A stretch of 40,687 nucleotides of DNA. It comes from Myxococcota bacterium. Its GTDB lineage: Bacteria; Myxococcota; XYA12-FULL-58-9; JALHOP01. Where the stretch lies: the NCBI GenBank assembly GCA_041288095.1, contig JBGGMJ010000194.1, forward strand, positions 1 to 40,687, read 5' to 3'. Shown one piece after another: positions 11,122 through 40,659 of the stretch (position 1 is the first letter of the stretch; every line of letters begins with the position of its first letter). The notes below the pieces were generated by a model. That model was not told the origin of the DNA. It made no database searches and worked only from the letters and a program-made list of their open reading frames with translations. The translations under genes were made by a program, and so were the position numbers.

Positions 11122-11147
11122 TTATCGCGACACCCCTTGGGCGGTTG
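11122..11147 (-). promoter_or_regulatory. Sigma-28-like promoter candidate CAAC-N15-GCGATAA
   Basis: Minus strand reads gCAAC cgcccaaggggtgtc GCGATAA, about 29 nt upstream of ATG 11093. Same spacing as the other copies. Confidence 0.55.
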
Positions 11148-11214
11148 CGCGGCTTACCGCCTGACTGCCGCGCCGTCATGGACAAACCGGACTGCTTCTT
11201 GCCTACCCGCAGGC

Positions 11215-11220
11215 TACAAT
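11215..11220 (+). promoter_or_regulatory. -10 hexamer TACAAT of a probable leaderless transcript
   Basis: TACAAT, 7 nt, then ATG 11228. No SD sequence. Confidence 0.45.
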
Positions 11221-11227
11221 GACGCCA

Positions 11228-12124
11228 ATGGTTGGACCGGCTGGTCTCGGTTCTAAAGCGCATCTGCCCGCGCCCCTGCGCGTGGTCTCCGACGGCGGTG
11301 TCGCGCCGGTCCAAGCCCAACCGAGCTGCGCCCTTGATCGCCGCGAACCCGCCGTCGCACGGCCGCCCACCGAGCGCGCTGCCTGTGCGCCGAACGTCAC
11401 CGCGCCTGTGGGTGGGGCGACCGCCGGGCCCGCCAAAGGCACGTTCAGTCCGAGCGTCCTCGCCGTCGCCCTTGCTTCTGAGCCCCTCGGACCAGGGCAC
11501 CAGGCAGTGGTCCGGGACCAGCTCAATCTGCTCATAGGCAAGTACGGGCCCGTGGATCGGGACACCGCGCTGGGGTTGCCGCGCGCCGCACACTACAAAG
11601 TCGAGCGGCTCCTGCCTTTCAACGGTGCGCACTCACCGAACGGCCTCCTGCAGATGAGCCCCAAGTCGCACGGCGAAGCGGTGCGCTTCTTGACGGGCGC
11701 GCGCGATAGGGCCGCTATAGCGGGCATGGGGTCAGTCGTTCATGAGGCGCTGCACGGGCACTCTGTCGTCGGGGCGCGGCATTGGGGTGAGCTGCCCGAG
11801 GCGTCTCAACGCATCGATCACCTCGCGATCGTCGCCGCGACACAGGCCATCTTGGTACGTGAGTTCCGCGTCGATCCCGGGTCCATCACCACCTCCGTGC
11901 CATACGGAGTGAACGAGACGATTGCCATGATCGCTCGCAGTACGGGCTTGAGCCCAGCCGCCGCCCGCAACGCCCTCTACGACGCGTCCTTGCAATACTT
12001 GGGACCCGGCCCCAACGTGCATACCGGCCAGATGGTCGAAAGACGCTTCATCGACGCCGTCAGCGCGGTCACAGGCAGAAGGTTCGACGACGCGCTGCGA
12101 CAGCACCTGGCCGCACTGCCCTGA
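11228..12124 (+). CDS. Hypothetical protein with an HExxH motif and a Pro/Ala-rich N-terminus
   Basis: VVHEALHG motif. About 75 aa low-complexity N-terminus and no Sec signal. Start chosen from the upstream -10 box (ORF track start is 11219). Confidence 0.6.
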   Translation: MVGPAGLGSKAHLPAPLRVVSDGGVAPVQAQPSCALDRREPAVARPPTERAACAPNVTAPVGGATAGPAKGTFSPSVLAVALASEPLGPGHQAVVRDQLNLLIGKYGPVDRDTALGLPRAAHYKVERLLPFNGAHSPNGLLQMSPKSHGEAVRFLTGARDRAAIAGMGSVVHEALHGHSVVGARHWGELPEASQRIDHLAIVAATQAILVREFRVDPGSITTSVPYGVNETIAMIARSTGLSPAAARNALYDASLQYLGPGPNVHTGQMVERRFIDAVSAVTGRRFDDALRQHLAALP

Positions 12125-12130
12125 GCTACG

Positions 12131-14017: not shown

Positions 14018-14650
14018 ATGGTCGGCTTCCCGCTCCCGGCTCTTTCGTCCCGTAGCTTCGAAACCCTGCTCGCATCGTCGACGCAAGCAGCTGTTGCCCC
14101 AGTGAATGTTCAGTCGACGGCGCTCGCGCCTCTGCTCTCCGCGAGCTTCGCACCGCCCGCCTCGAGTGCGACAGGCCTCATGCCCTTCAGCGCCGCGGAG
14201 CCCGCTTCGAGCACGACATCGTCCGGGACGAGCGGGCCGGTGACCAAGAGCCCGTATGCGGGCAAACCGTTCGACATCACGAACTATCACAACCTGAATC
14301 CGGCGGTGCGCGACCAGCTTCTCGATGAGCGTAATTGGGATCCAGACCTCGCCGACAACGGCGATTTCATCGGCGCCTTCATGCTCGCGGGTGGCAAGAT
14401 GCCGACCGTCACTTTCGACGCGCAGGGAATGCCGCGCATGGATGAGTACTACGAGCGCTACTCGGCGGTCGTGAGCTCCCCAGAATTCCAAGAGGTGAAG
14501 CAGCGACGCATGAACGAGATGCGCGAGACCCTCGCCTTCATGCACTCCGACGAGGGACGCGCGGCGCAACGCGAGCGCGAGGCTTGGTACCAACGCCAGT
14601 TTCCGCAGCAACGCACGAGCGACAATAGATTCGTCGTCGGACCGGCGTAG
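14018..14650 (+). CDS. Hypothetical protein with a Ser/Ala/Pro-rich N-terminus
   Basis: AGGAG RBS 6 nt before ATG 14018. About 75 aa low-complexity N-terminus, then a charged helical region. Confidence 0.6.
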   Translation: MVGFPLPALSSRSFETLLASSTQAAVAPVNVQSTALAPLLSASFAPPASSATGLMPFSAAEPASSTTSSGTSGPVTKSPYAGKPFDITNYHNLNPAVRDQLLDERNWDPDLADNGDFIGAFMLAGGKMPTVTFDAQGMPRMDEYYERYSAVVSSPEFQEVKQRRMNEMRETLAFMHSDEGRAAQREREAWYQRQFPQQRTSDNRFVVGPA

Positions 14651-17461: not shown

Positions 17462-18811
17462 ATGACGTGGACCAATGTTCGTAACATGCACCTTGCGGTC
17501 GCCTGCGTAGGCTTCGTCGCGGCGTGCGGCGCATCGACGACGCTCGATGGCAGCACCAGTACTCAAGAGCTCTCCGAGACGCTCATCAGGGTCACCGAGT
17601 TTTCGGATGACTCCCACTGCCCAGGCGAAGGCAGTCGCGTCGAAGCGGGACTCGACGACGGTGAGGGCGAGAGCGTCGCCGGTGACGGAGTCCTCCAAAG
17701 CGGTGAAGTCGACTCGACGACATACATCTGCACTGGTTCGACCGGCCCCTCGGGTGACGACGGTTACAACAGCCTGCTGCGCGCGGTTCCGGAGGGCGTC
17801 GGTGAAAACTGCGGAGCCCCTGGCTTCCGCATCGACACTGGCCTCGACAACGGCGACGGCGGCAGCGTCAACACCATCAATTCGAGCGTTGCGAACGACG
17901 GCATCCTGCAGGATGGCGAAGTCGACAGCAGCGAATACCTCTGCGAGCCCCCGCACCCCCGCGGCGCCCTCATTGCCTTCCAGAACGGCACCGGCACCGG
18001 CAACGTCCTGAGCGTCGACGTGGTCGCGATGACGGCGACCTCCATCCATGATGTCGACGACGACTTCGTCCAGGCTGTCCACTCGCGCGGTGGCGCTATC
18101 GCGTACCGCCACTACGCGGACGACGACCTCACGACTGTCCACTCGAACGGCAACTACTACGACATCAACTCGCTCTGGGGCGGCACCGCTTACTTCACCG
18201 CGGTGCATGGCTCGAAGGTCGCCTTCGTGGGCGCGTATGGTGGCCCCTGGAACGTGTTCGCCGGCGACTACGTCGATGGCTCCTTCACGCAGATCACCGA
18301 CAACGAGGAGCTGGGCACCGGCTACTACGAAATCGACACCGACGGTGAGTGGGTCGTGTATCGCCGCTTCGCGAACGGCTCGAACGCCATCGTCGCCTAC
18401 AACTTGGTGACGGCGGCATCGGTCGAGGTCGGCTCGGGTCATTCGCCGCACGTCGGCGCCGGTCATGTCAGCTACGTCGCGGCCGGTGATGACGTGGTCG
18501 TCTACGACCTCGCGGCCGAAACGGCGAGCAACCTCACCGTGGACATCGCCGGCGAAGCGAGCGAGGCGACGATCGACGGCGACATCCTGGCTTTCACTGC
18601 GGAGAGCGCGCTCTACGTCTACGACTTCGGTACCGGCCAGCGTTCGCTCGTACAGGGCGCCACCACCAATCGGGCCCGCGCCGTTGGCAACACCGTGTTG
18701 TTCGTTACAGCGGACCACCACATGGCCCGCGTCTACAACGTGGCCACCGGCGGTATCGCGACAGTCGCCAACGATGCGTCGACGTACTTCGACTTCCGGC
18801 CGGCCGACTAA
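17462..18811 (+). CDS. Lipoprotein with two C..G.R...GLD...DG.LQ.GEVDS..Y.C repeats and a C-terminal beta-propeller-like domain
   Basis: Lipobox VAAC. Repeats HCPGEGSRVEAGLDD..GDGVLQSGEVDSTTYIC and NCGAPGFRIDTGLDN..NDGILQDGEVDSSEYLC. C-terminal IDTDGEWVVY / IDGDILAF / VYDL blades. Confidence 0.75.
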   Translation: MTWTNVRNMHLAVACVGFVAACGASTTLDGSTSTQELSETLIRVTEFSDDSHCPGEGSRVEAGLDDGEGESVAGDGVLQSGEVDSTTYICTGSTGPSGDDGYNSLLRAVPEGVGENCGAPGFRIDTGLDNGDGGSVNTINSSVANDGILQDGEVDSSEYLCEPPHPRGALIAFQNGTGTGNVLSVDVVAMTATSIHDVDDDFVQAVHSRGGAIAYRHYADDDLTTVHSNGNYYDINSLWGGTAYFTAVHGSKVAFVGAYGGPWNVFAGDYVDGSFTQITDNEELGTGYYEIDTDGEWVVYRRFANGSNAIVAYNLVTAASVEVGSGHSPHVGAGHVSYVAAGDDVVVYDLAAETASNLTVDIAGEASEATIDGDILAFTAESALYVYDFGTGQRSLVQGATTNRARAVGNTVLFVTADHHMARVYNVATGGIATVANDASTYFDFRPAD

Positions 18812-18878: not shown

Positions 18879-19046
18879 CGCGTTTATGGGCACCCGAGTA
18901 TCGTCTCTCACGTCTTACGCGGATGTCGTGGATCAGCGCGAAATGTTTGGGAAAATGCGCCTTGACCCCAACTAACGACCTGTGTGCTTTTCAATGTCCG
19001 AGCCCGGCGCGTGGGGATGCAGCCAGGGCAAACATAGGACGTTGGC

Positions 19047-21713
19047 GTGAACCGAACGGTGCTTCGAGGCTGTTGTCTCCAGAAGTTTGTTCTCGTGTTG
19101 GCGCTCGCGAGCTCGTTCGCCATGGGATGCGGCGACGAGGACGACAATTTACGCGACGAGTGCAACGACAGCTGCGGGGTGACTGGCGCGCTGGCTTGTA
19201 ACGACGGTGTGCTCCGGACCTGCGTCGAAGACGCTGACGGTTGCCGCGCCTGGGATGGCGGCACGACGTGCCCCAACGGCGCATGTGCTGACTCGGTCTC
19301 CTGCGGTGCGTGCACCAACAGCTGCTCTGCCGCGGGCGTGACTTCCTGTGATGACGGCGTCGTCGAAACCTGCGTCGCCGATGGCAATGGTTGCCTCGCT
19401 TTCGCTACCGGGACGGCCTGCCCCGACGGCTTCTGCGGTGACGCTGCTTCCTGCGGCACCTGCACCAACACGTGCTCCGCAGTCGGCGTGACCGCGTGCT
19501 CGGCGGGCGTCGTGAGCACCTGCGTTGCCGACAGCAATGGTTGTCGCTCCTTCAACGCCGGCACTGCTTGTCCCGACAACTTCTGCGGCGACACCGCGTC
19601 CTGCGGCACCTGCGCCAACACCTGCGCCGCGGCGGGTGACACCTCCTGCTCCGCCGGTGTCCTTCAGACTTGTGTCGCCGATGGCAACGGCTGCCTCGCC
19701 TTCAACTCGGGTACGGCCTGCGCCGACAACTTCTGCGCCGATGCCGCTACTTGCGGCACCTGCGCCAACACCTGCGCCGCCGCGGGCGACACCTCCTGCT
19801 CCGCCGGCGTCCTTCAGACTTGCGTCGCCGACAGCAACGGCTGCCTCGCCTTCAACTCGGGTACGGCTTGCACGGACAACTTCTGCGCTGATGCCGCCAC
19901 TTGCGGCACCTGCACCAACACCTGCGCCGCCGCGGGGAACACCTCGTGCGTTGGCGGCGTCCTTCAGACCTGCGTCGCCGACAGCAACGGCTGCCTCGCG
20001 TTCAACTCGGGTACGGCCTGCACGGACAACTTCTGCGCCGATGCCAGCACCTGTGGCACCTGCACCAACACCTGCGCCGCGGCAGGAGACACCGTGTGCG
20101 TTTCCGGCGTTCTGCAAACTTGTGTCGCCGACGGCAACGGCTGTCTGGCATTGAACTCGGGCTCGACCTGCCCCGACGGCTTCTGCGCCGACGCAGTCTC
20201 TTGCGGCACCTGCACCAACTCCTGCGCGACAGCGGGCGATACGGAGTGCAACGCCGGCGTGCTGACCACTTGCGTGGCCGACGTCAACGGCTGCTTGGCC
20301 TTCAACGCGGGCACGGCTTGCCCCGATGGCACCTGCGCTGACGCGGTATCGTGCTCGACGTGTCTCAACACCTGCGCGACCGCGGGCGACACGGCTTGCA
20401 ACGCCGGCGTGCTCACGACCTGCGTTGCGGACGTGAACGGCTGCTTGGCGATGAACGCCGGCACCTCTTGCCCCGACGGGTTCTGCGCCGACGCGGCTTC
20501 ATGCGGTACGTGCACCAACACCTGCGCCGCCGTTGGTGATACCTCCTGCGCTGCTGGTGTTCTGCAGACCTGCGTTGCTGACGGCAACGGCTGCTTGTCC
20601 TTCAACGCCGGCTCGTCTTGCCCCGACGGGTTCTGCGCCGACACGGCTTCGTGCGGTACGTGCACCAACACCTGCGCCTTGGCCGGAGACACGGCGTGCT
20701 CCGCTGGTGAGCTCACCACCTGCGTGGCTGACACGAACGGCTGCCTCGCGTTCAACGCCGGCACGACCTGCCCCGATGGTTTCTGCGCTGACGCAGTCTC
20801 TTGCGGCACGTGCGCCAATACCTGCGCCAATGCAGGTGACACCTCGTGCGCCGTCGGTGTGCTCACTACCTGTGTCGCCGACATCAATGGCTGCCTTGCG
20901 CCGAACGCCGGCGCGGGATGCCCGAGCGGCTTCTGCGAGAGCGCTACGGCGTGCTCGCCGCCGCCGGATCACTTCAGCATCGCGGTGATCGGCACCCAGC
21001 ACTCGGGCACCGCGTTCGACATCGTCGTCACGGCGGAAGACGCCGGCAACGCCACGATCACCGCGTTCGAGGGCACCGTCGACCTCGCGGTCAACTCGGG
21101 CACCATCGCTCCGCTCACCAGCGGCGCGTTCGTCGCCGGCGTGTTGACGCAGAGTGTGACCATTACCGGGCCGTACCGCACCAACGAGATCGTCCAGGTG
21201 ACCAACACCGCTGGCGGCGCGTCGGGGACGAGCAACGCGTTCACCTTGAACCGCTTCCACGCGACGGCGGTGGCCCTGGTCGACGGAGCCGCGAACGCGG
21301 GCCGCATTCAGAACGGGGACCTCATCGTGCTGACCTTCAGCGAGGCTGCTTCGCCCGCCTCCGTCGGGACGTGCGGGATTACGACCGCTGCTACCGGCCT
21401 GTTGTTCAATGACTCGGGTGGCGCTATCGCGGACACCGTTACGGCGGACACGACGGCTCTGCACATGGGCACGATCAATCTGGGCAACGGCGGATACATG
21501 ACGGGCAATCGCACGACCGACACCTCGACCTGCGTATGGAGCGCGGGCGATACCGTCCTTACGATCTCCGTGCTCGGTATGACCGGCTCGGTCGTCGCCA
21601 GTGTCGGCACCGCGAGCACGGCGACCTGGACACCGGTTGCCGGCCCGACCAGCGCCACGGGTGAGGCTCTCGACCTCACGCAAGTGCCCACGGTGACTGC
21701 GGTTCTCTTCTAG
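19047..21713 (+). CDS. Cys-rich tandem-repeat surface lipoprotein with C-terminal Ig-like/beta domains
   Basis: GTG start and lipobox-like AMGC. Twelve 50-aa repeats with 8 Cys each. Tail DHFSI..Q.SGTAFDIVVTAEDAGN...F.GTV.L..SG...F..GV....VT is Ig-like. Confidence 0.85.
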   Translation: MNRTVLRGCCLQKFVLVLALASSFAMGCGDEDDNLRDECNDSCGVTGALACNDGVLRTCVEDADGCRAWDGGTTCPNGACADSVSCGACTNSCSAAGVTSCDDGVVETCVADGNGCLAFATGTACPDGFCGDAASCGTCTNTCSAVGVTACSAGVVSTCVADSNGCRSFNAGTACPDNFCGDTASCGTCANTCAAAGDTSCSAGVLQTCVADGNGCLAFNSGTACADNFCADAATCGTCANTCAAAGDTSCSAGVLQTCVADSNGCLAFNSGTACTDNFCADAATCGTCTNTCAAAGNTSCVGGVLQTCVADSNGCLAFNSGTACTDNFCADASTCGTCTNTCAAAGDTVCVSGVLQTCVADGNGCLALNSGSTCPDGFCADAVSCGTCTNSCATAGDTECNAGVLTTCVADVNGCLAFNAGTACPDGTCADAVSCSTCLNTCATAGDTACNAGVLTTCVADVNGCLAMNAGTSCPDGFCADAASCGTCTNTCAAVGDTSCAAGVLQTCVADGNGCLSFNAGSSCPDGFCADTASCGTCTNTCALAGDTACSAGELTTCVADTNGCLAFNAGTTCPDGFCADAVSCGTCANTCANAGDTSCAVGVLTTCVADINGCLAPNAGAGCPSGFCESATACSPPPDHFSIAVIGTQHSGTAFDIVVTAEDAGNATITAFEGTVDLAVNSGTIAPLTSGAFVAGVLTQSVTITGPYRTNEIVQVTNTAGGASGTSNAFTLNRFHATAVALVDGAANAGRIQNGDLIVLTFSEAASPASVGTCGITTAATGLLFNDSGGAIADTVTADTTALHMGTINLGNGGYMTGNRTTDTSTCVWSAGDTVLTISVLGMTGSVVASVGTASTATWTPVAGPTSATGEALDLTQVPTVTAVLF
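19158..20957 (+). repeat. 12 x 150-bp in-frame tandem repeat (50 aa, 8 Cys each)
   Basis: Consensus TCxNTCAAAGDTSCxAGVLxTCVADxNGCLAFNxGTxCPDxFCADAxSCG. Twelve units counted directly, and units 4-6 are nearly identical. Confidence 0.95.
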
Positions 21714-21735
21714 AAGGGCGTCCACGAGGCGGTTT

Positions 21736-21764
21736 GGCGACCCGCGTCACGAGCGCGGGTCGTT
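21736..21764 (+). terminator. Stem-loop after the repeat lipoprotein gene
   Basis: CGACCCGCG (21738-21746) / CGCGGGTCG (21754-21762). Confidence 0.55.
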
Positions 21765-21837
21765 CCTCGTTGATAGATCGGTTTCGGCCGGCTACACCTA
21801 ACTACTCGGCCTTCGTCGACCTTCAACAGGGAGATGG

Positions 21838-22509: not shown

Positions 22510-22510
22510 G

Positions 22511-23484: not shown

Positions 23485-23544
23485 TCGGTCACCTTTTTTG
23501 CGGATCCGCGAATCCTTTTTGGCGCGCGACGACTCTCACCCGCC

Positions 23545-24734: not shown

Positions 24735-24740
24735 CGGTTG

Positions 24741-24767
24741 CGAGCCTGACGTGGCTTCGCAGGCTCG
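24741..24767 (+). terminator. Stem-loop after the DUF6265-like gene
   Basis: CGAGCCTG (24741-24748) / CAGGCTCG (24760-24767). Confidence 0.45.
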
Positions 24768-24772
24768 GGGGG

Positions 24773-24797
24773 CAACCAGCTCCGCAAGCGCCCGATA
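24773..24797 (+). promoter_or_regulatory. Sigma-28-like promoter candidate CAAC-N15-CCGATA
   Basis: gCAAC cagctccgcaagcgc CCGATAg, 9 nt before ATG 24807. Confidence 0.6.
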
Positions 24798-27466: not shown

Positions 27467-27499
27467 GCTCCGCCCCCGGTGGCGTGTTAAGCTCGGGTC

Positions 27500-30469: not shown

Positions 30470-30536
30470 GGGGAGGCGCAATACAAGGCGGCGCGGCGAT
30501 GATCAACTTGAGTCAGACGCGGTATAAGCCTCGCCA

Positions 30537-31115
30537 ATGCGCCACCTCCCGACCCTCTTGTTGCTGGGCGTGACCGTCGTTCCATGCACCGCCGGCGCGG
30601 ACACCCATTTCGTCCGCGGCGCCCAAGTGCTTAGCGTTCCCTCGCCCTATGCGACGCCGGCGACCCCGTACCACGGGCTGTTTCTGCGCTTGCACGAGAA
30701 GGTCGACAAGCAGACCGGCGCTTCCGGGTTTGCCTTCGACAAGAACCTCGAGCGCATCAGATACTTTCAAGGCGAGAAGCCCGTGGCGATCGTGCCGGGG
30801 GAGGGCTGCGGCAAGCATCCGGTGGAGTGGCTCTACAAGGCGAAGGCCGTGGGCTGGTTCAGCAAGAAGCTGCCGGCGCTATTGCTCATCCAGGTCCCGG
30901 AGGACGCGAAGAGCGCGGCAGCGCCCAAGGTGTTGCCGGTGTGCAAGGAGGAGGGGGCGGTGCGCGCTTCGACGGTGCTGCGGACCGGCGGCGAGGAGCT
31001 CGCCTATGTCGTCTGTTCAGGCGACCTCAACGCTTGGCTCCAGGTCATGCGCTGGAGCGACCAGGGCGCATGGACCCCCATCGATGCGTTCACGGTGACC
31101 GACAACTGCCCGTGA
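30537..31115 (+). CDS. Hypothetical secreted protein
   Basis: N-terminal signal peptide MRHLPTLLLLGVTVVPCTAGA. TATAAG lies 8 nt upstream of the ATG. Confidence 0.65.
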   Translation: MRHLPTLLLLGVTVVPCTAGADTHFVRGAQVLSVPSPYATPATPYHGLFLRLHEKVDKQTGASGFAFDKNLERIRYFQGEKPVAIVPGEGCGKHPVEWLYKAKAVGWFSKKLPALLLIQVPEDAKSAAAPKVLPVCKEEGAVRASTVLRTGGEELAYVVCSGDLNAWLQVMRWSDQGAWTPIDAFTVTDNCP

Positions 31116-31158
31116 GGCCCGTGTCAGGCGGACAGACGCCGAATCGTCAATTCAGCGG

Positions 31159-31184
31159 TAACCAACTCGCGTTCACGCCCGATA
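31159..31184 (+). promoter_or_regulatory. Sigma-28-like promoter candidate (TAAC-N16-CCGATA)
   Basis: CCGATAT at 31179 in an intergenic region, then GGGGAG RBS and ATG 31216. The -35 spacing is imperfect. Confidence 0.4.
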
Positions 31185-31215
31185 TCCCCAACGAGCTCGA
31201 AACGGGGAGACCGGC

Positions 31216-31581
31216 ATGCACGACGTTCGATCCACCTCCGCAATCAGGACGCACGCCGCCACCGTCGAGCCGGCTACCACGCCCCTCGCAGCCCAGGTGC
31301 CCGCCACCCCCGCGGACACCTACGCCCGGTCGCGTGCCAGTGAGCCCCTCGCGCTGGGTCTCGTGATGGGTCTCAGCGCCGGCATGGCGCTCACCGCTGC
31401 CCTCGTCGCCGCGGGACTCAACGCCGGCGCCCCCATGGAGACCGTGCAGCTCGCGAAGGCCAGCGGCGTTCTGATGTTCGGCAGCGTCGCTGCTGGCGGG
31501 TTGATTGGTGGGGCTGTCGCCGCGTTGAACTACGCGGCCGCGGGTGTCGCGACCTGCGTGAAGCGCGCTTGGCATCGTTAG
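31216..31581 (+). CDS. Small hypothetical protein: Thr/Pro/Ala-rich N-terminus plus two Gly/Ala-rich hydrophobic helices
   Basis: MHDVRSTSAIRTHAATVEPATTPLAAQVPATPADTYARS, then LALGLVMGLSAGMALTAALVAAG and GVLMFGSVAAGGLIGGAVAAL. RBS GGGGAG. Confidence 0.65.
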   Translation: MHDVRSTSAIRTHAATVEPATTPLAAQVPATPADTYARSRASEPLALGLVMGLSAGMALTAALVAAGLNAGAPMETVQLAKASGVLMFGSVAAGGLIGGAVAALNYAAAGVATCVKRAWHR

Positions 31582-31625
31582 AGCGTTGACCCCGAGCCTC
31601 CCCTGCGGTTTGGATGGGGGTTCGC

Positions 31626-32519
31626 ATGGCAACCTGCTCTCAAGCCGAGGACTACGTCGCCGGGAAACTCTCCGCCGGCGACACACGCGCCTTCGAAGCG
31701 CACGCGGCGTCGTGTGCGACCTGCGCCAAGGCGCTCGTCAGGCGTAAGGCTGTCGAGCGGGCTGCCTCGGTGATGCGGCGCAATCAGGTCGCGCGTGACA
31801 CGCGCAGCGACGTCCCTTCCGCTCCCAATTCGCAGCTCGACGCGACGCCGGTCTCCGCGAGCGAGCTCGCCAGTGTCGCGAGCGAGCGCGAGGAGAGCCG
31901 GGAGCCGGACCTCGCGAGCGGCGCGAACGGCAAGCGCATCGCCATCGCGGTCGGCGTCGTGCTGACCGTGGGCGTGGCCATCGCCTTGTGGTCGAGCAGC
32001 GGCACGACGCAGTCGCAGCCAGAAGCCCCACCCGTCGCCGCCGCGCCCCTGCCCACCGAGCCGACGCCGGAACCGCAACCCCAGCCCGTGGTGGCCGCGC
32101 CAGCCGAGGTGCCACCTCCGGAGCCCCCGCATCCCATCGCCGAGGTTCCCGCCAAGGCACCGGCACCAACGCCCACCAAGACCGACGCCAAGCAGCAAGA
32201 GTGGCTGCCCATCGGCACCGACATCGAAGAGCTCGCCTCGACCGTCGCCGGCAAACGTTGCGGCTCCGCCGTCACCGCCCTGCGCGACCGCGTCACCAAG
32301 AACAAGGCCGAGGCCCGCTCCTGGGCGCTCCTCACCACCTGCTATGCGAAGCGCAAGCGTTGGCAGCTCGCCCTCGACGCCTACGACATGGTGGTGCAGT
32401 ACGGCGACCAGGCGCTCGTCGCTAGCGTGCAGAACCACGCCGATGCCGCGCGTGCCGGGCAAAAGGCCGAGGCCGAGGCCGCCGCGGCTGCTGCTCCCGC
32501 CGTCGCTCCGCCAGAGTGA
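31626..32519 (+). CDS. zf-HC2 (anti-sigma-like) membrane protein with a Pro-rich linker and a TPR-like C-terminus
   Basis: DYVAGKLS....AFEAHAASCATC (HxxxCxxC), one TM (IAIAVGVVLTVGVAIALW), Pro-rich stalk, and helical ARSWALLTTCYAKRKRWQLALDAY. Confidence 0.75.
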   Translation: MATCSQAEDYVAGKLSAGDTRAFEAHAASCATCAKALVRRKAVERAASVMRRNQVARDTRSDVPSAPNSQLDATPVSASELASVASEREESREPDLASGANGKRIAIAVGVVLTVGVAIALWSSSGTTQSQPEAPPVAAAPLPTEPTPEPQPQPVVAAPAEVPPPEPPHPIAEVPAKAPAPTPTKTDAKQQEWLPIGTDIEELASTVAGKRCGSAVTALRDRVTKNKAEARSWALLTTCYAKRKRWQLALDAYDMVVQYGDQALVASVQNHADAARAGQKAEAEAAAAAAPAVAPPE

Positions 32520-32523
32520 CGCC

Positions 32524-32572
32524 AAAAATAGAAACGGCGCGCGGCACCCCACCACAGTGCGCCGCACGCCGT
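32524..32572 (-). terminator. Rho-independent terminator for the Crp-like gene
   Basis: GC-rich stem AACGGCG.GCGGC / GCCGC.CGCCGTT, followed on the minus strand by TCTATTTTT. Confidence 0.6.
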
Positions 32573-32607
32573 TCCCGAATACGACCTATGGACCCTGCTA
32601 GGGAGAG

Positions 32608-33309
32608 CTAGATGGCCAGGCGCTGAGCTGCCGGGACCTCGAACTCGTCAGTGCGCTCGTTCCAAGCGTTCTCGCTGTTGGCGATCTTGGTCGGCTCCGC
32701 AATGAGCGAGTACATGAGGCTCGTCTCTTCCTTCTCTTCCTTCTCCTCGCTCGGACGAGCGCGGAGCTCGGCGAGAGCGCGGAAGACCGAGCGCTCGGAC
32801 ACGCCGAGGACGGCGGCCAAGGCGCGGACCGGAAGGCCCAAGGAAGCCAAGACACCGAGGAGGCCCGAGAGGCGATCCGCGAGGCTCGAGGTCTCGAGCG
32901 CGAACCACGACAGCGAGCTGGCGTAGCGGCCGACGAGGTCACGCGTAATCCAGGCGCGCAGCTCGGCGGACGAGAACCACTCGTTCAGGAAGTCTTCACG
33001 GGGAATGCTGATGAGGTGACCAGGGGTGAGCAACCGGACCGAGTCACGGGCGGTGCTACCGGCCAGAACCTCACGGTCGCCGAGAATCGCCGGACCGCAC
33101 ATCAGCAAGGTGGTGCGGCCATTGCCGCGCTCGCCGACGTAGGCCCGGGCGTACCCGGAAACCAGAATGTAAATCTCATCGACCGGCTCGTCGGCACGGT
33201 AGAGCCGCTGACCGGCTCGCCCCACGAGCGAACGGTCTGCGAACCGCGCCTCGCGCTGGTCGATGGGGGTGGCTTTAATCTCACGAAGTAGGTTGAGCAG
33301 GGTGTCCAT
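32608..33309 (-). CDS. Crp/Fnr-family regulator (cNMP-binding domain plus HTH)
   Basis: AGQRLYRADEPVDEIYILVSGYARAY...ILGDREVL...R.DSVR cNMP-binding pattern. HTH LPVRALAAVLGVSERSVFRALAEL. Confidence 0.8.
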   Translation of the reverse strand: MDTLLNLLREIKATPIDQREARFADRSLVGRAGQRLYRADEPVDEIYILVSGYARAYVGERGNGRTTLLMCGPAILGDREVLAGSTARDSVRLLTPGHLISIPREDFLNEWFSSAELRAWITRDLVGRYASSLSWFALETSSLADRLSGLLGVLASLGLPVRALAAVLGVSERSVFRALAELRARPSEEKEEKEETSLMYSLIAEPTKIANSENAWNERTDEFEVPAAQRLAI

Positions 33310-33322
33310 GACAAACCTTCAG

Positions 33323-33339
33323 TGCAGGTCGCGTGCCCA
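33323..33339 (-). promoter_or_regulatory. Sigma-54 (-24/-12) promoter for the Crp-like gene
   Basis: Minus strand TGGGCACGCGACCTGCA: GG-N10-GC with a GGCACG core. Predicted +1 at about 33312, just upstream of ATG 33309. Confidence 0.7.
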
Positions 33340-33429
33340 AGCTGGGTGCAAGTAGGGTAGGGAGGGTGAGCGTCATGATTTCAGGATGTTACGTCGGTAC
33401 GTGCCAGTGTGGTCCGACGCACACAAAGG

Positions 33430-33446
33430 CCTGACAGCAGGTCAGG
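33430..33446. promoter_or_regulatory. Palindrome CCTGAC-N5-GTCAGG, candidate enhancer (UAS)
   Basis: Perfect 6-bp inverted repeat about 95-110 bp upstream of the sigma-54 -24 element, between the divergent crp-like and activator genes. Confidence 0.35.
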
Positions 33447-33542
33447 ACCTGAAGGTTGAATCCGACACTGTAGGGACGACCCGACGTTTGTTGGCTTCAA
33501 CCTCGACCTCACCCAGCACTTGGGCGGATAGTAGATTTGACG

Positions 33543-34940
<1,398 letters not shown>

Positions 34941-34966
34941 GCCGCCGATAAGGCGTTACCTTTCTC

Positions 34967-35899
34967 ATGATGCACTACATCGCTGGCGTCTCCGGGCCCT
35001 CGTTGGCTTTCTCTTCGGGCTCCGTGTCCGAGCGTCTCGTCGAGCGCACCATTCGTGGCAACAAGATGGTCTGCCGTGAGTGGGGCAAGCCCGGGAACCC
35101 CGTGGTCATCGGTATCCACGGCTTGAGCTCGAACTCGATCTGCTTCGCCGACATCGCCGAGGCGGTGGCCAAGGCCGGCTATCACGTCGTCGTCCCCGAC
35201 CTGCGCGGCCGCAACCTCAGCCCGGCGAGCGGCTCGCAAAGCTACGGCTGGCCGAATCACGGCAAGGACGTGTCTGCTATCGCGGACGATATCCGCAAGG
35301 AGACCCGCGGCGCTTGCGGCGAGAAGTTCAGCATCATGGGGCACTCGATGGGCGGGTACATCGCGCTCGACATGCCGCGCGAGCGTCTCGATCGCGTCGT
35401 CATCCTCGACGCCTTGGGCATCCCCGAGAGCGGCGCCGTTCAATCGGTTGGCGGCTCGGTCAATCGTCTCGACAAGACCTACCCCTCGGCCGATGCCTAC
35501 GTCGCCAGCATCAAGAACAAGGGCCTCATCAAGCCGTTCACCAAGACCTGGGACCGCCACTTCCGCGAGGAAGTCGTGGCGATCGCCGACGGGGTGACCC
35601 CGCGCACGAGCAAGAGCGCGGTCGACGAGGACACGGCCTACGCGATGATGCGTTCGTCGATGCCCTACTCCTTCGCCCAGTCGTGGAAGACGCTGCCGGA
35701 GCAGACCCTGGTCATCCGCGCCGGTCAGCCCATGACGCCCGTGCTGGGCCGCTTCATCAGCGATACCGACTCGTTCGCCTACAAGGCCCTGCGCGGTGAC
35801 AAGCTCTTCAAGACTGTCGACGCCAACCACTACACGGTGCTGACCGAGCCCCACACGATTTCGCTGGTCGCGAAGTTCTTCAAGGGCGAGTCGCTCTGA
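34967..35899 (+). CDS. Alpha/beta-fold hydrolase (esterase/lipase-like)
   Basis: IHGLSS oxyanion motif, PDLRGR, nucleophile elbow GHSMGG, catalytic His in DANHYT. Confidence 0.85.
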   Translation: MMHYIAGVSGPSLAFSSGSVSERLVERTIRGNKMVCREWGKPGNPVVIGIHGLSSNSICFADIAEAVAKAGYHVVVPDLRGRNLSPASGSQSYGWPNHGKDVSAIADDIRKETRGACGEKFSIMGHSMGGYIALDMPRERLDRVVILDALGIPESGAVQSVGGSVNRLDKTYPSADAYVASIKNKGLIKPFTKTWDRHFREEVVAIADGVTPRTSKSAVDEDTAYAMMRSSMPYSFAQSWKTLPEQTLVIRAGQPMTPVLGRFISDTDSFAYKALRGDKLFKTVDANHYTVLTEPHTISLVAKFFKGESL

Positions 35900-35937
35900 G
35901 CTTGCGGATGACGCGCCGCTGATTTAACTGCGGCCGC

Positions 35938-36702
35938 ATGAATCTGAAGAATCGTCGTGCTCTGGTTACCGGCGCGGCTTCCGGCATCGGCTGGGCCATC
36001 GCCAAGCGCTTCTCCGACGCGGGCGCGGAGGTTCTCCTCTCCGACCTGCCCGGCCCGGCTCTCGACAAGGCCGTCTCCGAGCTCGGCGGCAAGGCCCGTG
36101 CGTTGCCGGCGAACCTCGCTGTCCGCGATGAAGTTCTCAAGCTCGCCAAGGACGCCGGTCAAGTCGACGTGCTCATCAACAATGCCGGCTTGCAGCACGT
36201 GAGCCCCATCGACGACTTCGACCTCGCCAAGTGGGACCTCATCATCGCGGTGATGCTGACGGCGCCGTTCACGCTCGTGCGCGCGGCGCTTCCGGGCATG
36301 GTTCAGCGCAACTGGGGCCGCATCATCAACGTCTCGTCGGTCCACGGCTTGATCGCTTCAGCGTACAAGTCGGCCTACGTCTCGGCGAAGCACGGCGTCA
36401 TCGGTCTCACCAAGACCGTCGCGCTCGAAGCCGGCGCCCGCTCGCACCAAGTCACCTGCAACGCCATCTGCCCGTCGTACGTGCGCACACCGCTCGTCGA
36501 GAAGCAGGTCGCCGACCAGGCCAAGGCCCACGGCATCCCCGAGAGCGAAGTGCTCGAGAAGGTCTTGCTCACGCAGAACGCCATCAAGCGGCTGATCGAG
36601 CCGGCAGAGGTGGCGGAGGCGGCGATGTATCTGACGCGCGATGATGCGTGGTCGGTGACCGGTAGCGCGCTGATGCTCGATGCGGGTTGGCTAGCGCATT
36701 AG
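35938..36702 (+). CDS. bdhA: D-3-hydroxybutyrate dehydrogenase (SDR)
   Basis: TGAASGIG, NNAGLQHVSPI, SSVHGLIASAYKSAYVSAKHG and ICPSYVRTPLVEKQ are family-specific motifs. Confidence 0.9.
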   Translation: MNLKNRRALVTGAASGIGWAIAKRFSDAGAEVLLSDLPGPALDKAVSELGGKARALPANLAVRDEVLKLAKDAGQVDVLINNAGLQHVSPIDDFDLAKWDLIIAVMLTAPFTLVRAALPGMVQRNWGRIINVSSVHGLIASAYKSAYVSAKHGVIGLTKTVALEAGARSHQVTCNAICPSYVRTPLVEKQVADQAKAHGIPESEVLEKVLLTQNAIKRLIEPAEVAEAAMYLTRDDAWSVTGSALMLDAGWLAH

Positions 36703-36704
36703 CG

Positions 36705-37709
36705 TTAGAGCCTGAACGACAAGTCCAGCGAGCCGAAGAAGTCCGGCTTGATCTGCCGCTCGAACTCCTTCGTGCGCAACACGTGGGTCATCGCCACGCG
36801 CGTGTTCTTCCACACCAGTGCCCAGCCGAACTGCGCGTCGACGACGATCGGATTGCGCTCGACGCCGCGGCTCTCGCGAAAGGTGCTGCCGTCGATGAAG
36901 ATGTTGCGGATGACGCTGCGCGCCTCGCCGCCGAGGAAGTAGTACCAGCCGAAGTCGTTGGTTTGCGTGAACACGCCGTTGCCTTGGATGCCGGGCAAGA
37001 CGCGGCGTGGGCCGTAGTCGAGGGGCATGTTGTCGCCAAAGCGGATGGTGAAGCCCGCGGCCGTGTAGTCGTAGACGTTGCCCAAGGCGACGCCGATGTG
37101 CGGGAACACCTCGGTGAAGAGGCCTCCGAAGGTGCCGAGGTGATAACGCCAAACGTGTTGATACGAGAGGATGGCCGCGCCTTCGTTCGGCAGCTGCGTG
37201 TCCCAGCGGCGTGGCGTCGGGCCGATGGCGACATGGATGACCCGCTGCACCTGACGGCCCAGCGCCGCCGGTCCGATGATACCCAGAGTCAGCGTCAGAT
37301 CGTCGAAGTGCTCGGGCGTGACCGTCTGGATGCCCGCTGTAGCGTACAAGAACGCGGCGAAGGGGCGATCGCGGTCGCCGAGGTTTTGCAGGATGATGCT
37401 GCGCGGCGTGTAGATGTTGTGGCCGCCGCCGAAGGTCGCGTGCACCTCGCCGTCCGTCGCGAACCAACGGCCGATGGCGTGCATGAAGTTGGGCGTGCCG
37501 GCGCGGCTCGTGGTCCAGAGGCCGTTGACGCCGCTCGAGTAGTGGCGGTCGAGCGCGAACAGCACGTCGTTCTCGATGAGGAGGCTGAAGGTGCCGCGGT
37601 CGTCATCGGGACGTGAGAGACGATAGCTGGCTGCTGCCGCGGCGGCGGCGGACGTGTCGGGCGGCCCTGCGAGAGCTACGAGCGAGCAGGCGAGTACCGC
37701 GACCGACAT
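36705..37709 (-). CDS. lpxR: Lipid A 3'-O-deacylase LpxR-family (DUF2219) outer-membrane protein
   Basis: Signal peptide, ENDVLFALDRHYSSG, HNIYTP, DRPFAAFLY, LGIIGP.A.G..VQ..IH, W..QL.NE, NIFIDG, and a C-terminal beta-signal-like LSFRL. Confidence 0.8.
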   Translation of the reverse strand: MSVAVLACSLVALAGPPDTSAAAAAAASYRLSRPDDDRGTFSLLIENDVLFALDRHYSSGVNGLWTTSRAGTPNFMHAIGRWFATDGEVHATFGGGHNIYTPRSIILQNLGDRDRPFAAFLYATAGIQTVTPEHFDDLTLTLGIIGPAALGRQVQRVIHVAIGPTPRRWDTQLPNEGAAILSYQHVWRYHLGTFGGLFTEVFPHIGVALGNVYDYTAAGFTIRFGDNMPLDYGPRRVLPGIQGNGVFTQTNDFGWYYFLGGEARSVIRNIFIDGSTFRESRGVERNPIVVDAQFGWALVWKNTRVAMTHVLRTKEFERQIKPDFFGSLDLSFRL

Positions 37710-37746
37710 TGGCCGCGGACGGTCTCCGATCGCGGAGCACCGCGCA

Positions 37747-37779
37747 AGTGGGGAGCCCGCTCATGACGGACTCCCCACT
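37747..37779 (-). terminator. Stem-loop downstream of the 37790-38719 gene
   Basis: AGTGGGGAG.CCG / CGG.CTCCCCACT inverted repeat. Confidence 0.55.
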
Positions 37780-37789
37780 CGCTTCGTGA

Positions 37790-38719
37790 CTACTTCGCTG
37801 CTTCTGGCTTTTTCTTGGTGAACTTGAGGAGCAGACCACCGCCAGCGGCCATGACGCCGCCGCCGATGATCGCCGGTACCGCTTGCTGCCAGTTCAAGGC
37901 AGTGCGGCCCAGCGCAGGACCCCAGTCCATGCCGTTGGTGACGCCACCGACCACGCCCGACAAGGCGTAGAAGGCACCGGCGCCGAGGAGGCCATAACCA
38001 GCGACGCGGAGCGCCAAGCGGCCAACGTTGCCGAGCTCGAACCTCTTCTTCTTCTCTTCAGCCGGCTTCTCGGCCGGGCGCCCACCGCGATCGACTTCAC
38101 GCGATCCGCCGCCCGAGCGCACCGAGATGACCTCTGGTCCTTCGACCGGGCCATTGGTGCGATAGACCTTCCAACCGCGGTCGGTCTCGACGGCCTCGTA
38201 CATCTGGCCGTTGACCTCGTAGAAGCCAGGACCTTCCTGCTCGGCCTGCGCGATCACCGCGGCGGTGATTGACGGCTTACGCTGCGGCTTGAAGGGGATC
38301 TGCTCTTCTTCGCCCTCGTAGCCGTTCTCGTAGCGCTCTTCGCTACGGGGTCCGCCACGACGGGGCGCCGGCTCGCTGGAATACTCTTCTTCGTAGCCGG
38401 CCGGTCCACCACCGCGCTCGTTGTAGCGGATACGCGGATTCGGCGCGCGCTCGAGGTCGATCTGAATGTCCGGCTGCTGGCGCTCCTTGATGCGGATGCG
38501 CTGCGGCGGCGGTGGCGGCGCGTCGTCGTCCAGGATGCGGACGTCTACGCCCCGACCCGAGCCGGCAGGTTGGCGGGAGGGATAACCATACTCATAGGAA
38601 CCGCTGGCGCGGGTCGCTGAGCGGCGGTGGCTTTCACGGTATTCCTCGTGCGAGTACTGACCGCGGCCCCGGCCGCCATTCGGCCCATAGTATCCAGCGT
38701 CGGTGGCACGCATCGACAT
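37790..38719 (-). CDS. Hypothetical protein: long Arg/Gly/Tyr/Glu-rich disordered region plus two C-terminal TM helices
   Basis: AGGTGA RBS-like sequence before ATG 38719. Low-complexity N-terminal 230 aa, hydrophobic LALRVAGYGLLGAGAFYALSGVVGG and AIIGGGVMAAGGGLLL, basic tail. Confidence 0.7.
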   Translation of the reverse strand: MSMRATDAGYYGPNGGRGRGQYSHEEYRESHRRSATRASGSYEYGYPSRQPAGSGRGVDVRILDDDAPPPPPQRIRIKERQQPDIQIDLERAPNPRIRYNERGGGPAGYEEEYSSEPAPRRGGPRSEERYENGYEGEEEQIPFKPQRKPSITAAVIAQAEQEGPGFYEVNGQMYEAVETDRGWKVYRTNGPVEGPEVISVRSGGGSREVDRGGRPAEKPAEEKKKRFELGNVGRLALRVAGYGLLGAGAFYALSGVVGGVTNGMDWGPALGRTALNWQQAVPAIIGGGVMAAGGGLLLKFTKKKPEAAK

Positions 38720-38821
38720 GGGTTCACCTGCCTTTAGATGGTCAAATTGTGTTGGGATTGGAGTCCGCAGCTCACATGACTGAGGTCACGTGATCGCTCT
38801 AGCTGTGGATCCAGATCGATA

Positions 38822-38846
38822 TATCGGCGCCGTGACGCGGGGGTTG
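38822..38846 (-). promoter_or_regulatory. Sigma-28-like promoter candidate CAAC-N14-GCCGATA (leftward)
   Basis: Minus strand reads gCAAC ccccgcgtcacggc GCCGATAt, about 100 nt upstream of ATG 38719. Confidence 0.65.
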
Positions 38847-38861
38847 CTTGGCGAAGGGCAA

Positions 38862-38886
38862 CAACTCTTGGCGGTCACTGCCGATA
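38862..38886 (+). promoter_or_regulatory. Sigma-28-like promoter candidate CAAC-N14-GCCGATA (rightward)
   Basis: aCAAC tcttggcggtcact GCCGATAc, back-to-back with the leftward copy. Confidence 0.65.
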
Positions 38887-38960
38887 CACCCCGTTGATCT
38901 GGGAAGGCGCCTGACCCCTTCGAGGCGAACGCTTCCTGTCGAACCAAAGTGAGGGTCCCC

Positions 38961-40577
38961 ATGCGGGTCAGCGGTTGCCGACTCGTCACCGCCATTTTGT
39001 TCGTCGGCATCGGCCTTTGGGCGGACGTGTCTTCGGCGTTGACCGTGCAAAACATCGCCTGCACCAGCGGCGAGCTCAGCGTCACCATCAAGATCCCGAC
39101 CCAAGCCATTGCCGGTGATCCCCGTACGTTCTGCCGTGTCGACATCGTCCTGACCGGCCAGACCAACCCCCTGGCGATCGGTCACCAGATCCTCGTGCAG
39201 GCCCTGGTCGACGACTCGTATTGGGGCAGCGACAGCACCTTCTATTCGAGCACGTTCAGCGTGACCTCGCAGGAAGCGGCCGCCCAGCGCGTGCAGCGCT
39301 CGATCGATTGCACCGGCGACTTCATGGACAACGGTTGGTCGAGCGTCGCCATTTACGGCTTCGTCGACGCTTACAAAGGCCCGATCTACGCCCCGGATCG
39401 CTGCGCCACGAACACGCTCGAGGTCGAGGTCATCGGTGACGAGGACCCAGAGGTCTCGGACAGCGCCGCGAGCGCCGCCCAGCTTGGCACCGGCGTTAGC
39501 AACAAGGTGGCGGCGGATCCGGACTGGTATGCGGTCACGGTCAACGGTCAGAGCAGCCTCGCCATGACGCTCGCCTATGACGGCGGGTCAGGCGCGCTCG
39601 ACTTTCAGCTCACCGACAGTGCTGGCACTCAGGTGGCCAGCGGTAGCAAGACCGCCGAGGGCGCGGTGATCAACAAGACCGGGTTGGCAGCTGGCACCTA
39701 CAAGGTGAAGGTCGCGCCGCAGAGCGCAAGCGATCCCAACCTCTACGACCTGCGCATCGGCGGAACCTCCGGCGGTGGCGGCACCTGCACCGGCACCGCT
39801 TCGGAAGACCGTGACTGCGGCCGCTGCGGTACACAATCGCGGACATGCAACAGCGGCACTTGGTCGGGTTGGACGACCTGCACGGGGCAGGGCGAGTGCG
39901 AAGCCGGCGAGACCGATGTCGAGAGCTGCGGCGCCAACAAGTCGCGCACCATGACCTGCAGCGAGACCTGCGAGTGGGAGCCCGGCGCCTGCGTCGACGG
40001 TGACGGCGGCGGTGGTGGGGGCGGCAGCAACGCCGGCAAGGTCGGCCTCGCGTGCGACGACAACGAGCCCTGCGGCAACCTCGAGTGCCTCGGCCTCGAT
40101 AACACAGAGGGTATGTTTCAAAACGGCTACTGCACCATGTCTCCGTGCAACGCCGACTCGGCGTGTGGTGACAGCGCGGCCCTCTGCGGCGGCCTGTTCG
40201 GCACGCACTACTGCTTGAAGCGCTGCAGCGACAGCACCGATTGCCGCACCGGTTACGTGTGCGCCCGCTTCGGGAATGCCCGTGCCTGCACGCCGCGTTG
40301 CCGAGATGATCAAGACTGCGCCGACAATGCCCTGCCCGTCTGCGACGACGACAGCGGCTTGTGCCTGGCGTCCGCCGGAGCGGACCCGCAGGCCTGGAAT
40401 GGCGCGAGACCGAACGCTGACGGAAGTTTGGGTGGCGGTGCGTTACTCACAGCTGGAGGTGGATGCGTGGCTCTCGATCCTAGCATTTGGACTGTGATCT
40501 TCGCTGCGTTCTTGTTCAGTGCCCATGTCACCGCGCGGCGCTTTGCCGCGAAGGCGGCGCACAGCGTCGTCCGTTAG
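38961..40577 (+). CDS. Secreted Cys-rich surface protein with a PPC-like domain and a MYXO-CTERM-like tail
   Basis: Signal peptide. DPDWYAVTV...LDFQLTDSAG...AGTYKVKV..N.YDL is a PPC-like domain. Cys repeats CGRCGTQSRTC..W.GW..C and C....DC..GY.C. The tail GGGCVALD-TM-RR resembles MYXO-CTERM. ORF track start is 38949. Confidence 0.8.
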   Translation: MRVSGCRLVTAILFVGIGLWADVSSALTVQNIACTSGELSVTIKIPTQAIAGDPRTFCRVDIVLTGQTNPLAIGHQILVQALVDDSYWGSDSTFYSSTFSVTSQEAAAQRVQRSIDCTGDFMDNGWSSVAIYGFVDAYKGPIYAPDRCATNTLEVEVIGDEDPEVSDSAASAAQLGTGVSNKVAADPDWYAVTVNGQSSLAMTLAYDGGSGALDFQLTDSAGTQVASGSKTAEGAVINKTGLAAGTYKVKVAPQSASDPNLYDLRIGGTSGGGGTCTGTASEDRDCGRCGTQSRTCNSGTWSGWTTCTGQGECEAGETDVESCGANKSRTMTCSETCEWEPGACVDGDGGGGGGGSNAGKVGLACDDNEPCGNLECLGLDNTEGMFQNGYCTMSPCNADSACGDSAALCGGLFGTHYCLKRCSDSTDCRTGYVCARFGNARACTPRCRDDQDCADNALPVCDDDSGLCLASAGADPQAWNGARPNADGSLGGGALLTAGGGCVALDPSIWTVIFAAFLFSAHVTARRFAAKAAHSVVR

Positions 40578-40634
40578 ACGGCGTTTGCCCGCTGCCCGAG
40601 TGCGTTGGTGCCAGCAGGTCAGGATCCTGCGAGG

Positions 40635-40659
40635 CACCGGTGCGCCCGCGTCGCCGATA
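40635..40659 (+). promoter_or_regulatory. Sigma-28-like promoter candidate CACC-N14-GCCGATA
   Basis: gCACC ggtgcgcccgcgtc GCCGATAc, followed by a GAGAGG RBS and ATG 40672. Confidence 0.5.

Follow-up and report, generated by a model that had tools for sequence, protein, structure and literature searches.

A bipartite GYAAC/CCGATA motif faces gene starts in a narrow clade of uncultured Myxococcota and is predicted to be the promoter of an alternative sigma factor

Positions 1 to 40,687 of contig JBGGMJ010000194.1 from a Myxococcota bacterium (assembly GCA_041288095.1), here called the window and analysed over that full length of 40,687 nucleotides, carry a recurring two-block motif, G(C/T)AAC(C) followed 15 or 16 bases later by (C/G)CGATA, in front of scattered genes. 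The motif is enriched in the window, is consistently oriented toward gene starts, is conserved in the two closest relatives, and is restricted to that lineage. It is almost certainly the promoter of an alternative sigma factor, a prediction made from sequence, and would constitute a lineage-restricted promoter class with a large non-flagellar regulon in a narrow uncultured Myxococcota clade. The favoured candidate for its reader is a sigma-28/WhiG-type (group 3) factor, to which we give somewhat less than an even chance. [quoted passage not shown] Genes were called from codon-position G+C (GC3-based) and annotated with Pfam and NCBIfam. The exact pattern CAAC-N15-SCGATA matches the window four times, against 0.12 matches expected, and none of 100 dinucleotide shuffles reached four. 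All four copies are intergenic, and each faces a gene start on the same strand (Table 1). These are the exact sites of the preliminary description, the coordinate of the first being shifted from 11122 to 11123, and the three looser copies that it had given were likewise recovered. Its statement that the sites point at gene starts held for every one, all being intergenic with a start downstream. An eighth site, which it had not contained, was found in front of a DEAD-box helicase gene.

Table 1. Motif sites, the genes that they face, and the helicase leader (window coordinates unless a relative, L001 or L002, is named)
Feature	Position	Strand	Description
Site, exact	11123-11147	-	GCAACC-N14-GCGATA (CAAC-N15-GCGATA); 29 nt from -10 to ATG of gene 10164-11093
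Gene	10164-11093	-	309 aa; HELGH motif; no Pfam/NCBIfam match; no signal peptide
Site, exact	24773-24797	+	GCAACC-N14-CCGATA; in-frame ATG at 24807, 9 nt beyond -10
Gene	24807-25307	+	166 aa; without family match
Site, eighth	25363-25387	+	TAAC-N15-CTGATA; heads DEAD-box helicase operon
Operon	25457-28009		DEAD-box helicase, HAD hydrolase, 169-aa protein
Site, looser	31159-31184	+	GTAACC-N15-CCGATA (TAAC-N16-CCGATA); 31 nt before ATG 31216; GGGGAG ribosome-binding site
Gene	31216-31581		121 aa; two membrane-like helices; followed by zf-HC2 anti-sigma-like gene 31614-32519
Site, looser	34925-34950	+	CAAC-N16-CCGATA; 16 nt upstream of ATG 34967; -35 within last codons of a sigma-54 activator gene
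Operon	34967-36702		alpha/beta hydrolase and SDR
Site, exact	38822-38846	-	GCAACC-N14-CCGATA; faces gene 37790-38719
Gene	37790-38719		309 aa; disordered; C-terminal membrane helix; only 6 database relatives
Site, exact	38862-38886	+	ACAAC-N15-CCGATA; faces gene 38949/38961-40577; back to back with 38822-38846
Gene	38961-40577		secreted PPC-domain, Cys-rich protein; C-terminal tail of GGGC, transmembrane helix and basic stretch
Site, looser	40635-40659	+	GCACC-N15-GCCGATA (CACC-N15-GCCGATA), weaker -35; ATG 40672 follows 12 nt past -10; reading frame leaves window
Site	L002 6937		heads FAD/ALO oxidase gene and zf-HC2 gene
Site	L002 20477		heads beta-helix protein gene
Helicase leader	25388-25456		
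Helicase leader	L001 about 14550-14620	-	
Helicase leader	L002 about 9264-9332	-	

Relatives were drawn from 80 loci obtained by a scan of genome contigs, with the dimethylglycine-dehydrogenase-like protein encoded at 28010-30481 as query. Only two of these loci are close to the window: L001 (JALHOP010000002.1, a metagenome-assembled genome (MAG) titled 'Myxococcota bacterium', 94% identity) and L002 (CAZAER010000002.1, likewise a MAG, 96% identity), each of 22 kb, which together with the window amount to 85 kb. The broader pattern [CT]AAC-N15/16-[CG]CGATA was found 7, 5 and 5 times in the window, L001 and L002, respectively, where Markov means were 0.20, 0.11 and 0.11, and in none of 300 first-order Markov simulations per sequence was the observed count attained. 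Sixteen of the 17 matches are intergenic (6 of 7 in the window and 5 of 5 in each relative), with intergenic DNA making up 10-26% of each sequence; the remaining match lies antisense within a coding region at 20216.

A dyad census blind to the motif (4-mer/N13-19/4-mer), in which 63 upstream segments (10.4 kb, with orthologous segments of the three genomes counted separately) were compared with 138 kb of coding sequence on both strands, ranked CAAC-N17-GATA first, present in 8 of the 63 segments and absent from the coding DNA. The runners-up were mostly fragments of the same motif or of its reverse complement. A position weight matrix (PWM) trained on 13 sites scored the eight intergenic window sites at 16.5-23.7. 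Beyond these, only two matches exceeded 14, both intragenic, and the strong one at 40076 has lost its -35 in L001. Apart from these two there was a clear score gap below 16.5, and the scan revealed no weaker copies in front of the remaining window genes. Site density in the window, L001 and L002 is ∼1 per 4-5 kb, and ∼8 of roughly 26 transcription-unit starts are headed by the motif.

Alignment of 13 non-redundant sites gave nnG(C/T)AAC(C), a spacer, and (g/c)CCGATA(a/t/c). The gap from YAAC to SCGATA is 15 bases at nine sites and 16 at the other four. In the -35 element, YAAC is present at 12 sites and CACC at the thirteenth, and 10 of the 13 have a G in front. Because CGATA served as the key by which the sites were gathered, the -10 counts carry a bias; GATA is found in 13/13, CGATA in 12/13, a C preceding CGATA in 11/13, and GCCGATA in 6/13. 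No sequence relation was apparent among the spacers, which argues against a mobile or other repeat element.

Orientation is strict: all 16 intergenic matches in the three sequences face a start on the same strand, and all nine non-redundant sites that lie between co-directional genes share the orientation of those genes. Automatic gene calls placed the starts for six window sites 1-430 nt beyond the -10 element, a range that narrowed to 9-102 nt after two starts were corrected by eye. Where the start was checked, in the window and relatives together, the distance was 8-123 nt and the sites fell into two groups. The short-gap group comprises the starts at 24807 (9 nt), 40672 (12 nt) and 34967 (16 nt) and those served by the sites at L002 6937 (8 nt) and L001 517 (10 nt), whereas the remaining sites have gaps of about 29-31, 57-74 and 102-123 nt. 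The short gaps suggest leaderless or near-leaderless transcripts at some sites, 24773-24797 among them.

In a FastTree tree of the dimethylglycine-dehydrogenase-like protein, the window, L001 and L002 form a clade with a support of 100 and a branch of 0.19, amid loci labelled Polyangiales, Polyangiaceae or Myxococcales. The L002 record is titled 'uncultured Bdellovibrionales'; its conserved proteins are 82-96% identical to those of the window, and it groups with a Myxococcota MAG among Polyangiales-like loci. Given these identities and the placement in the one-protein tree, that label looks doubtful. Outside this clade the motif is scarce. The broader pattern gave 9 matches in the 1,301,821 bases of the other 78 loci, 3 of them in the portion whose GC exceeds 0.6, which amounts to 653,924 bases. 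The exact pattern was found 3 times in those 78 loci, compared with 3 in L001 and 1 in L002, and PWM scores of at least 15 were obtained for 17 matches in 1.30 Mb, with no locus holding more than two. The nearest neighbours in the tree (L019, L013, L015, L027 and L010) contain no PWM match at 15 or more. L029, a contig of 2.1 kb from another MAG, has a GTAACC-N15-CCGATA site within positions 1-60, separated by 10 nt from the ATG of a dimethylglycine-dehydrogenase-like gene; by this site, the motif may reach somewhat beyond the three-genome clade.

L001 is syntenic with window positions 25322-40568, and L002 is rearranged. At the helicase promoter, (A/G)TAAC and C(T/C)GATA are preserved in all three genomes over a changed spacer, the relatives reading GTAAC...CTGATA (L001) and GTAAC...CCGATA (L002). 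The non-coding -10 block of the 34925 site, GCCGATAAGGCGTT, is identical in 3/3 genomes between variable flanks; conservation of its -35 is confounded by coding, as that element shares its bases with the final codons of the sigma-54 activator gene. At the place equivalent to 40635, L001 reads GCAACC-N14-CCGATA. The back-to-back pair at 38822/38862 is also preserved in L001, but the whole intergenic region is ∼90% identical and this conservation is therefore weakly informative. The -10 of the 38822 site lies in a perfect 12-bp palindrome, CCGATATATCGG (38817-38828), which L001 preserves as well. Five further sites (L001 517 and 18368; L002 6937, 7953 and 20477) head genes for which the window offers no counterpart, and across the non-syntenic parts of the relatives the density of sites is similar to that of the window.

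The genes headed by the motif are diverse. By Pfam and NCBIfam, none of the downstream genes of the window, L001 and L002 falls into a family linked to flagella or chemotaxis, in agreement with the preliminary description, and the set does not correspond to a classical flagellar class-3 regulon. When the genes of the window, L001 and L002 were compared all against all by BLASTP, no paralogy emerged among the motif-headed ones and hence no shared family. The targets had been termed orphans, which is apt for some but not, at least, for gene 10164-11093: its Atlas model resembles MA-clan (M1/MA_2) zinc peptidases, and the protein is predicted to be a metallopeptidase-like member of a widespread family with an MA-peptidase-like fold. 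Similarly, the dispersed regulon of hydrolase, membrane and surface genes that had been proposed does include such types, but it is denser and also holds a DEAD-box helicase. The L001 open reading frame at the position matching 24807-25307 is not homologous to that gene. For the product of 37790-38719, the Atlas search for structural look-alikes gave no usable match (predicted template modelling score of the model, 0.23); the LpxR gene at 36705-37709 may belong to the same unit. The tail of the PPC-domain protein (40440-40577) resembles the MYXO-CTERM sorting tail of Myxococcota, and no NCBIfam model matched it at E = 0.1 or below.

Only 1 of 12 motif-headed proteins has a signal peptide. In an exploratory comparison of small sample size, weakened by start-codon uncertainty, the mean content of Ser, Thr, Pro, Gln and Asn in the first 30 residues was 0.35 for the 12 motif-headed proteins and 0.26 for 29 other window proteins (one-sided Mann-Whitney p = 0.011). 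Across the window, L001 and L002, with the same reservations, motif-headed products mostly lack a signal peptide and have Ser/Thr/Pro-rich, probably disordered starts. Among nearby genes that lack the motif, many have products with a classical signal or lipoprotein peptide.

The features of the motif can be explained by a model in which one alternative sigma-70-family factor uses G(C/T)AAC(C)-N15/16-(C/G)CGATA as its -35/-10 promoter. Region 4 of this factor would read GYAAC, and region 2, with region 3 if the factor is of group 3, would read CCGATA. Transcription would begin a few bases past the -10 element, with leader lengths that range from about 0-10 nt to some 100 nt, and the promoter class would account for about one in four to one in three of the transcription units seen. 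Genes under its control would include those for the metallopeptidase-like protein, the alpha/beta hydrolase and SDR, the DEAD-box helicase operon, small membrane proteins, the zf-HC2 anti-sigma-like protein, the surface PPC-domain protein and several lineage-restricted proteins without signal peptides. If the factor is of group 3, its -35 preference would have moved from T(A/C)AA(G) to GYAAC, and it may act as a broad lifestyle regulator, as FliA does in Bdellovibrio.

We lean toward a group 3, sigma-28-like factor because the -10 element has six conserved bases, the gap is the shorter one, and the density of sites is very high; ∼1 site per 4-5 kb suits a global group 3 factor better than a typical ECF factor. 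The -10 agrees with that of sigma-28 promoters, which is GCCGATAA-like with an invariant central CGA, in that CGATA is present at 12 of the 13 sites. The window, L001 and L002 hold no canonical sigma-28 site (T[ACT]A[AG]-N15-18-CCGATA), and 16 of their 28 CCGATA hexamers belong to the motif. Against the sigma-28 -35 (TAAA or T(A/C)AA(G)), the spacing fits and the CAA/TAA core is held in common, but the first base is usually G and the last is C. For the E. coli sigma-28 form, TAAAGTTT-N11-GCCGATAA, the gap would be N15, as it is in most of the present sites.

The closest precedent is the attack-phase regulon of Bdellovibrio bacteriovorus FliA, whose promoter, TTAAG-N16-CCGATA, accounts for 92 of 140 mapped attack-phase promoters, many of them non-flagellar (PMC3627812). 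Both systems share an identical -10, CCGATA, a five-base -35 with central AA at a nearly equal distance, and a large dispersed regulon, which for FliA comprises surface proteins, proteases and uncharacterised proteins beyond the flagellar genes. They differ in the -35 (GYAAC here, TTAAG in Bdellovibrio) and in the commonest gap (15 versus 16), and the present motif is set apart further by the absence of flagellar targets among those seen, a Myxococcota-like clade and a higher density of sites. Actinobacterial WhiG, a sigma-28-family factor for non-flagellar programmes, offers a second parallel. The WhiG2 consensus, T(A/C)AA-N16-GCCGATAA, in which the central CGA is most conserved (PMC12871210), has the same GCCGATA core, and its TCAA variant shares CAA with GCAAC; in contrast, the first -35 base here is G rather than T, an additional C is conserved after AA, and the gap is mostly one base shorter. 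WhiG or RsiG genes were not seen in the window, L001 or L002. A literature search (CCGATA in myxobacteria; flagella together with sigma-28 in Myxococcota; ECF factors with CGATA) found no printed description of the motif in the library covered.

Several observations weigh against the model set out above, with its sigma-28-type reader. The window, L001 and L002 contain no sigma gene assignable to the motif and no FliA/WhiG-family gene, nor are there flagellar, chemotaxis or FlgM-like genes in the 85 kb. Cultured Myxococcota are not known to be flagellate and are rich in ECF factors. In its first and last bases the -35 GYAAC(C) departs from the TAAA/TCAA of sigma-28, and it is identical to ECF -35 elements. 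Three start codons sit 8-10 nt past the -10, slightly long for a leaderless +1, and start sites or start-codon calls are uncertain there. The PWM was scored on the same 13 sites that trained it. L001 and L002 are close relatives, with conserved proteins at 91-96% identity, and their sites in the syntenic parts are thus not independent. That the motif acts as a promoter, where transcription begins and which factor reads it are inferred from nucleotide patterns.

The principal alternative, in which an ECF (group 4) factor reads the motif as a promoter with an AAC-type -35 and a CGA-type -10 and has an unusually large envelope- or stress-type regulon, is a serious if rather unlikely contender. 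It is kept at this level because of the -35 element, because Myxococcota are likely to be non-flagellate and rich in ECF factors, and because several targets have an envelope character. The targets include surface, membrane and lipid-A-modifying (LpxR) genes and the zf-HC2 anti-sigma-like gene. The motif has the AAC-core -35 of ECF promoters ahead of a CG-containing -10, at about the 16-17 nt typical of them for the N16 sites and one base closer for most. GYAAC(C) equals the -35 of sigma-D in Mycobacterium abscessus (GTAAC(A/G)-N16-CGAT, 72 chromatin immunoprecipitation sites genome-wide) and in Corynebacterium glutamicum (GTAAC(A/G) with GAT) (both PMC13537577, PMC6338062) and that of Caulobacter crescentus sigma-F (GTAACC-N16-CGAA; PMC3511200), and it is close to the hrp box of HrpL. 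At the T-variant sites the GTAAC of sigma-D is matched exactly, the -10 here contains its CGAT, and the four N16 sites have precisely the geometry of sigma-D and sigma-F; with sigma-F, GTAACC and a CGA core in the -10 are held in common at a similar gap.

Other features sit less well with an ECF factor. The -10 conserves six bases, CCGATA, in sigma-28 fashion, extending beyond the CGAT of sigma-D and ending in CGATA where sigma-F has CGAA. In common notation the ECF examples have gaps of 16-17 and the sigma-28 examples 15-16, and here 15 predominates, one base below the ECF comparators. The density of sites is far above that of the 72 sigma-D sites or of the small metal-stress regulon of sigma-F, which has its own anti-sigma, and the sigma-D hosts belong to unrelated phyla. 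An ECF sigma gene is present in the window at 22945-23484, which speaks for this alternative, but this sole copy has no motif in the 300 nt upstream, where autoregulation would call for one, and no motif-headed sigma/anti-sigma operon was seen. The gene (minus strand) overlaps the SnoaL-like gene 22511-22948 (plus strand) by 4 bases, tail to tail, and no adjoining anti-sigma gene was recognised by Pfam/NCBIfam annotation. In both the window and L002, the zf-HC2 gene (31614-32519 in the window) comes after a gene that the motif heads, without an accompanying sigma gene, and Pfam and NCBIfam searches to E = 0.1 detected no hidden sigma domains in the neighbouring 30537-31115 and 31162-31581.

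The HrpL comparison extends beyond the promoter itself. HrpL is the ECF factor that reads GGAACC/T-N15/16-C/T/G-CACNNA, the hrp box of plant-pathogen type III effectors (PMC8809351). There, as here, a single promoter box marks scattered, fast-evolving and often orphan genes for proteins without signal peptides, with a -35 ending in AACC and a similar gap; the -10 differs (CCGATA here, CCAC there), and no type III secretion genes were seen in the present sequences. That the motif-headed targets are effectors is only a guess by analogy. A bolder reading, which we regard as improbable, is that a sigma factor of hybrid specificity, with an ECF-like -35 (GYAAC) and a sigma-28-like -10 (CCGATA), has become a near-global driver in this uncultured, Polyangiales-nested clade. 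Between one-quarter and one-third of all units would be read by it, several of them leaderless or nearly so, with a preference for fast-evolving, lineage-restricted proteins that lack a signal peptide and have Ser/Thr/Pro-rich N termini. Such an effector-like or lifestyle-switch regulon would be under a non-flagellar descendant of FliA and would be comparable to the Bdellovibrio attack-phase programme, though larger.

Much less probable is a main housekeeping-type promoter read by a diverged primary or group-2 sigma factor. The high density would suit this, with the motif at ∼8 of roughly 26 unit starts and in front of a DEAD-box helicase gene and, in L029, the dimethylglycine-dehydrogenase-like gene, and a scan of 21000-40687 showed no enrichment of the sigma-70 consensus (1 match, shuffle mean 1.6), although such a simple scan is insensitive in 66% GC DNA. 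However, at about two-thirds of unit starts the motif is missing even when low PWM scores are admitted, the nearest Polyangiales-like loci are without it, and it is unlike TTGACA/TATAAT, for which the recognition regions of primary sigmas are generally conserved across bacteria; TTGACA-N16-18-TATAAT-like hexamers were found at none of the motif sites in the same scan. That the motif is no promoter at all, but a bipartite regulator-binding site or the remnant of a small repeated element, deserves scarcely any credence: just two short blocks are conserved and one -10 forms the palindrome noted above, but the strict co-directional orientation, the fixed gap of 15-16 bases, the close start codons (at checked sites), the unrelated spacers and the match of both blocks to known sigma recognition elements all speak for a promoter.

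Some further features of the window were noted. The ∼70-nt leader that separates the helicase promoter from the GTG start (TCGCTCCGCACTTCTGCAGTACGCTATCC...) hardly differs among the three genomes, which suggests a regulatory 5' untranslated region. Such regions are known for cold-shock DEAD-box helicases; an Rfam scan of the window gave no matches, the helicase leader included. Comparison of window 30537-31581 with L001 9824-9990 revealed that two genes (192 and 121 aa) and the 31159 site are missing from L001, where the zf-HC2 gene comes directly after the divergent gene for the enzyme. Both sequences share a short GCGTTGACCC element in front of the zf-HC2 gene. The neighbouring genes at 18908-19642 and 19964-20887 (both minus strand) encode proteins with internal repeats, which show 50-60% mutual identity at several offsets. 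On the opposite strand, the 888-aa open reading frame 19047-21713 (plus) is probably not a gene, given its shadow-like codon statistics (GC2 0.65). ARAGORN called a 97-nt tRNA-His at 18659-18755 (minus), inside the coding region 17462-18811; Rfam finds no tRNA there, and the call is therefore probably false.

The motif provides a sequence-only handle on a large regulon in uncultured bacteria. Scans of MAGs would list hundreds of co-regulated genes, many of them without a function by annotation, and would also point to the responsible sigma factor. Whichever factor reads it, the motif is of practical help in the annotation of this clade, both for start codons and for operons. Should an ECF sigma be responsible, its regulon would be among the largest known for that group. 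If, as we favour, it is a relative of sigma-28, it would be a further case of a flagellar sigma re-used as a general programme switch, in a group without flagellar genes in the sequences seen here, and a natural example of altered -35 specificity; the interest would be greater still should the factor prove to be a near-global driver.

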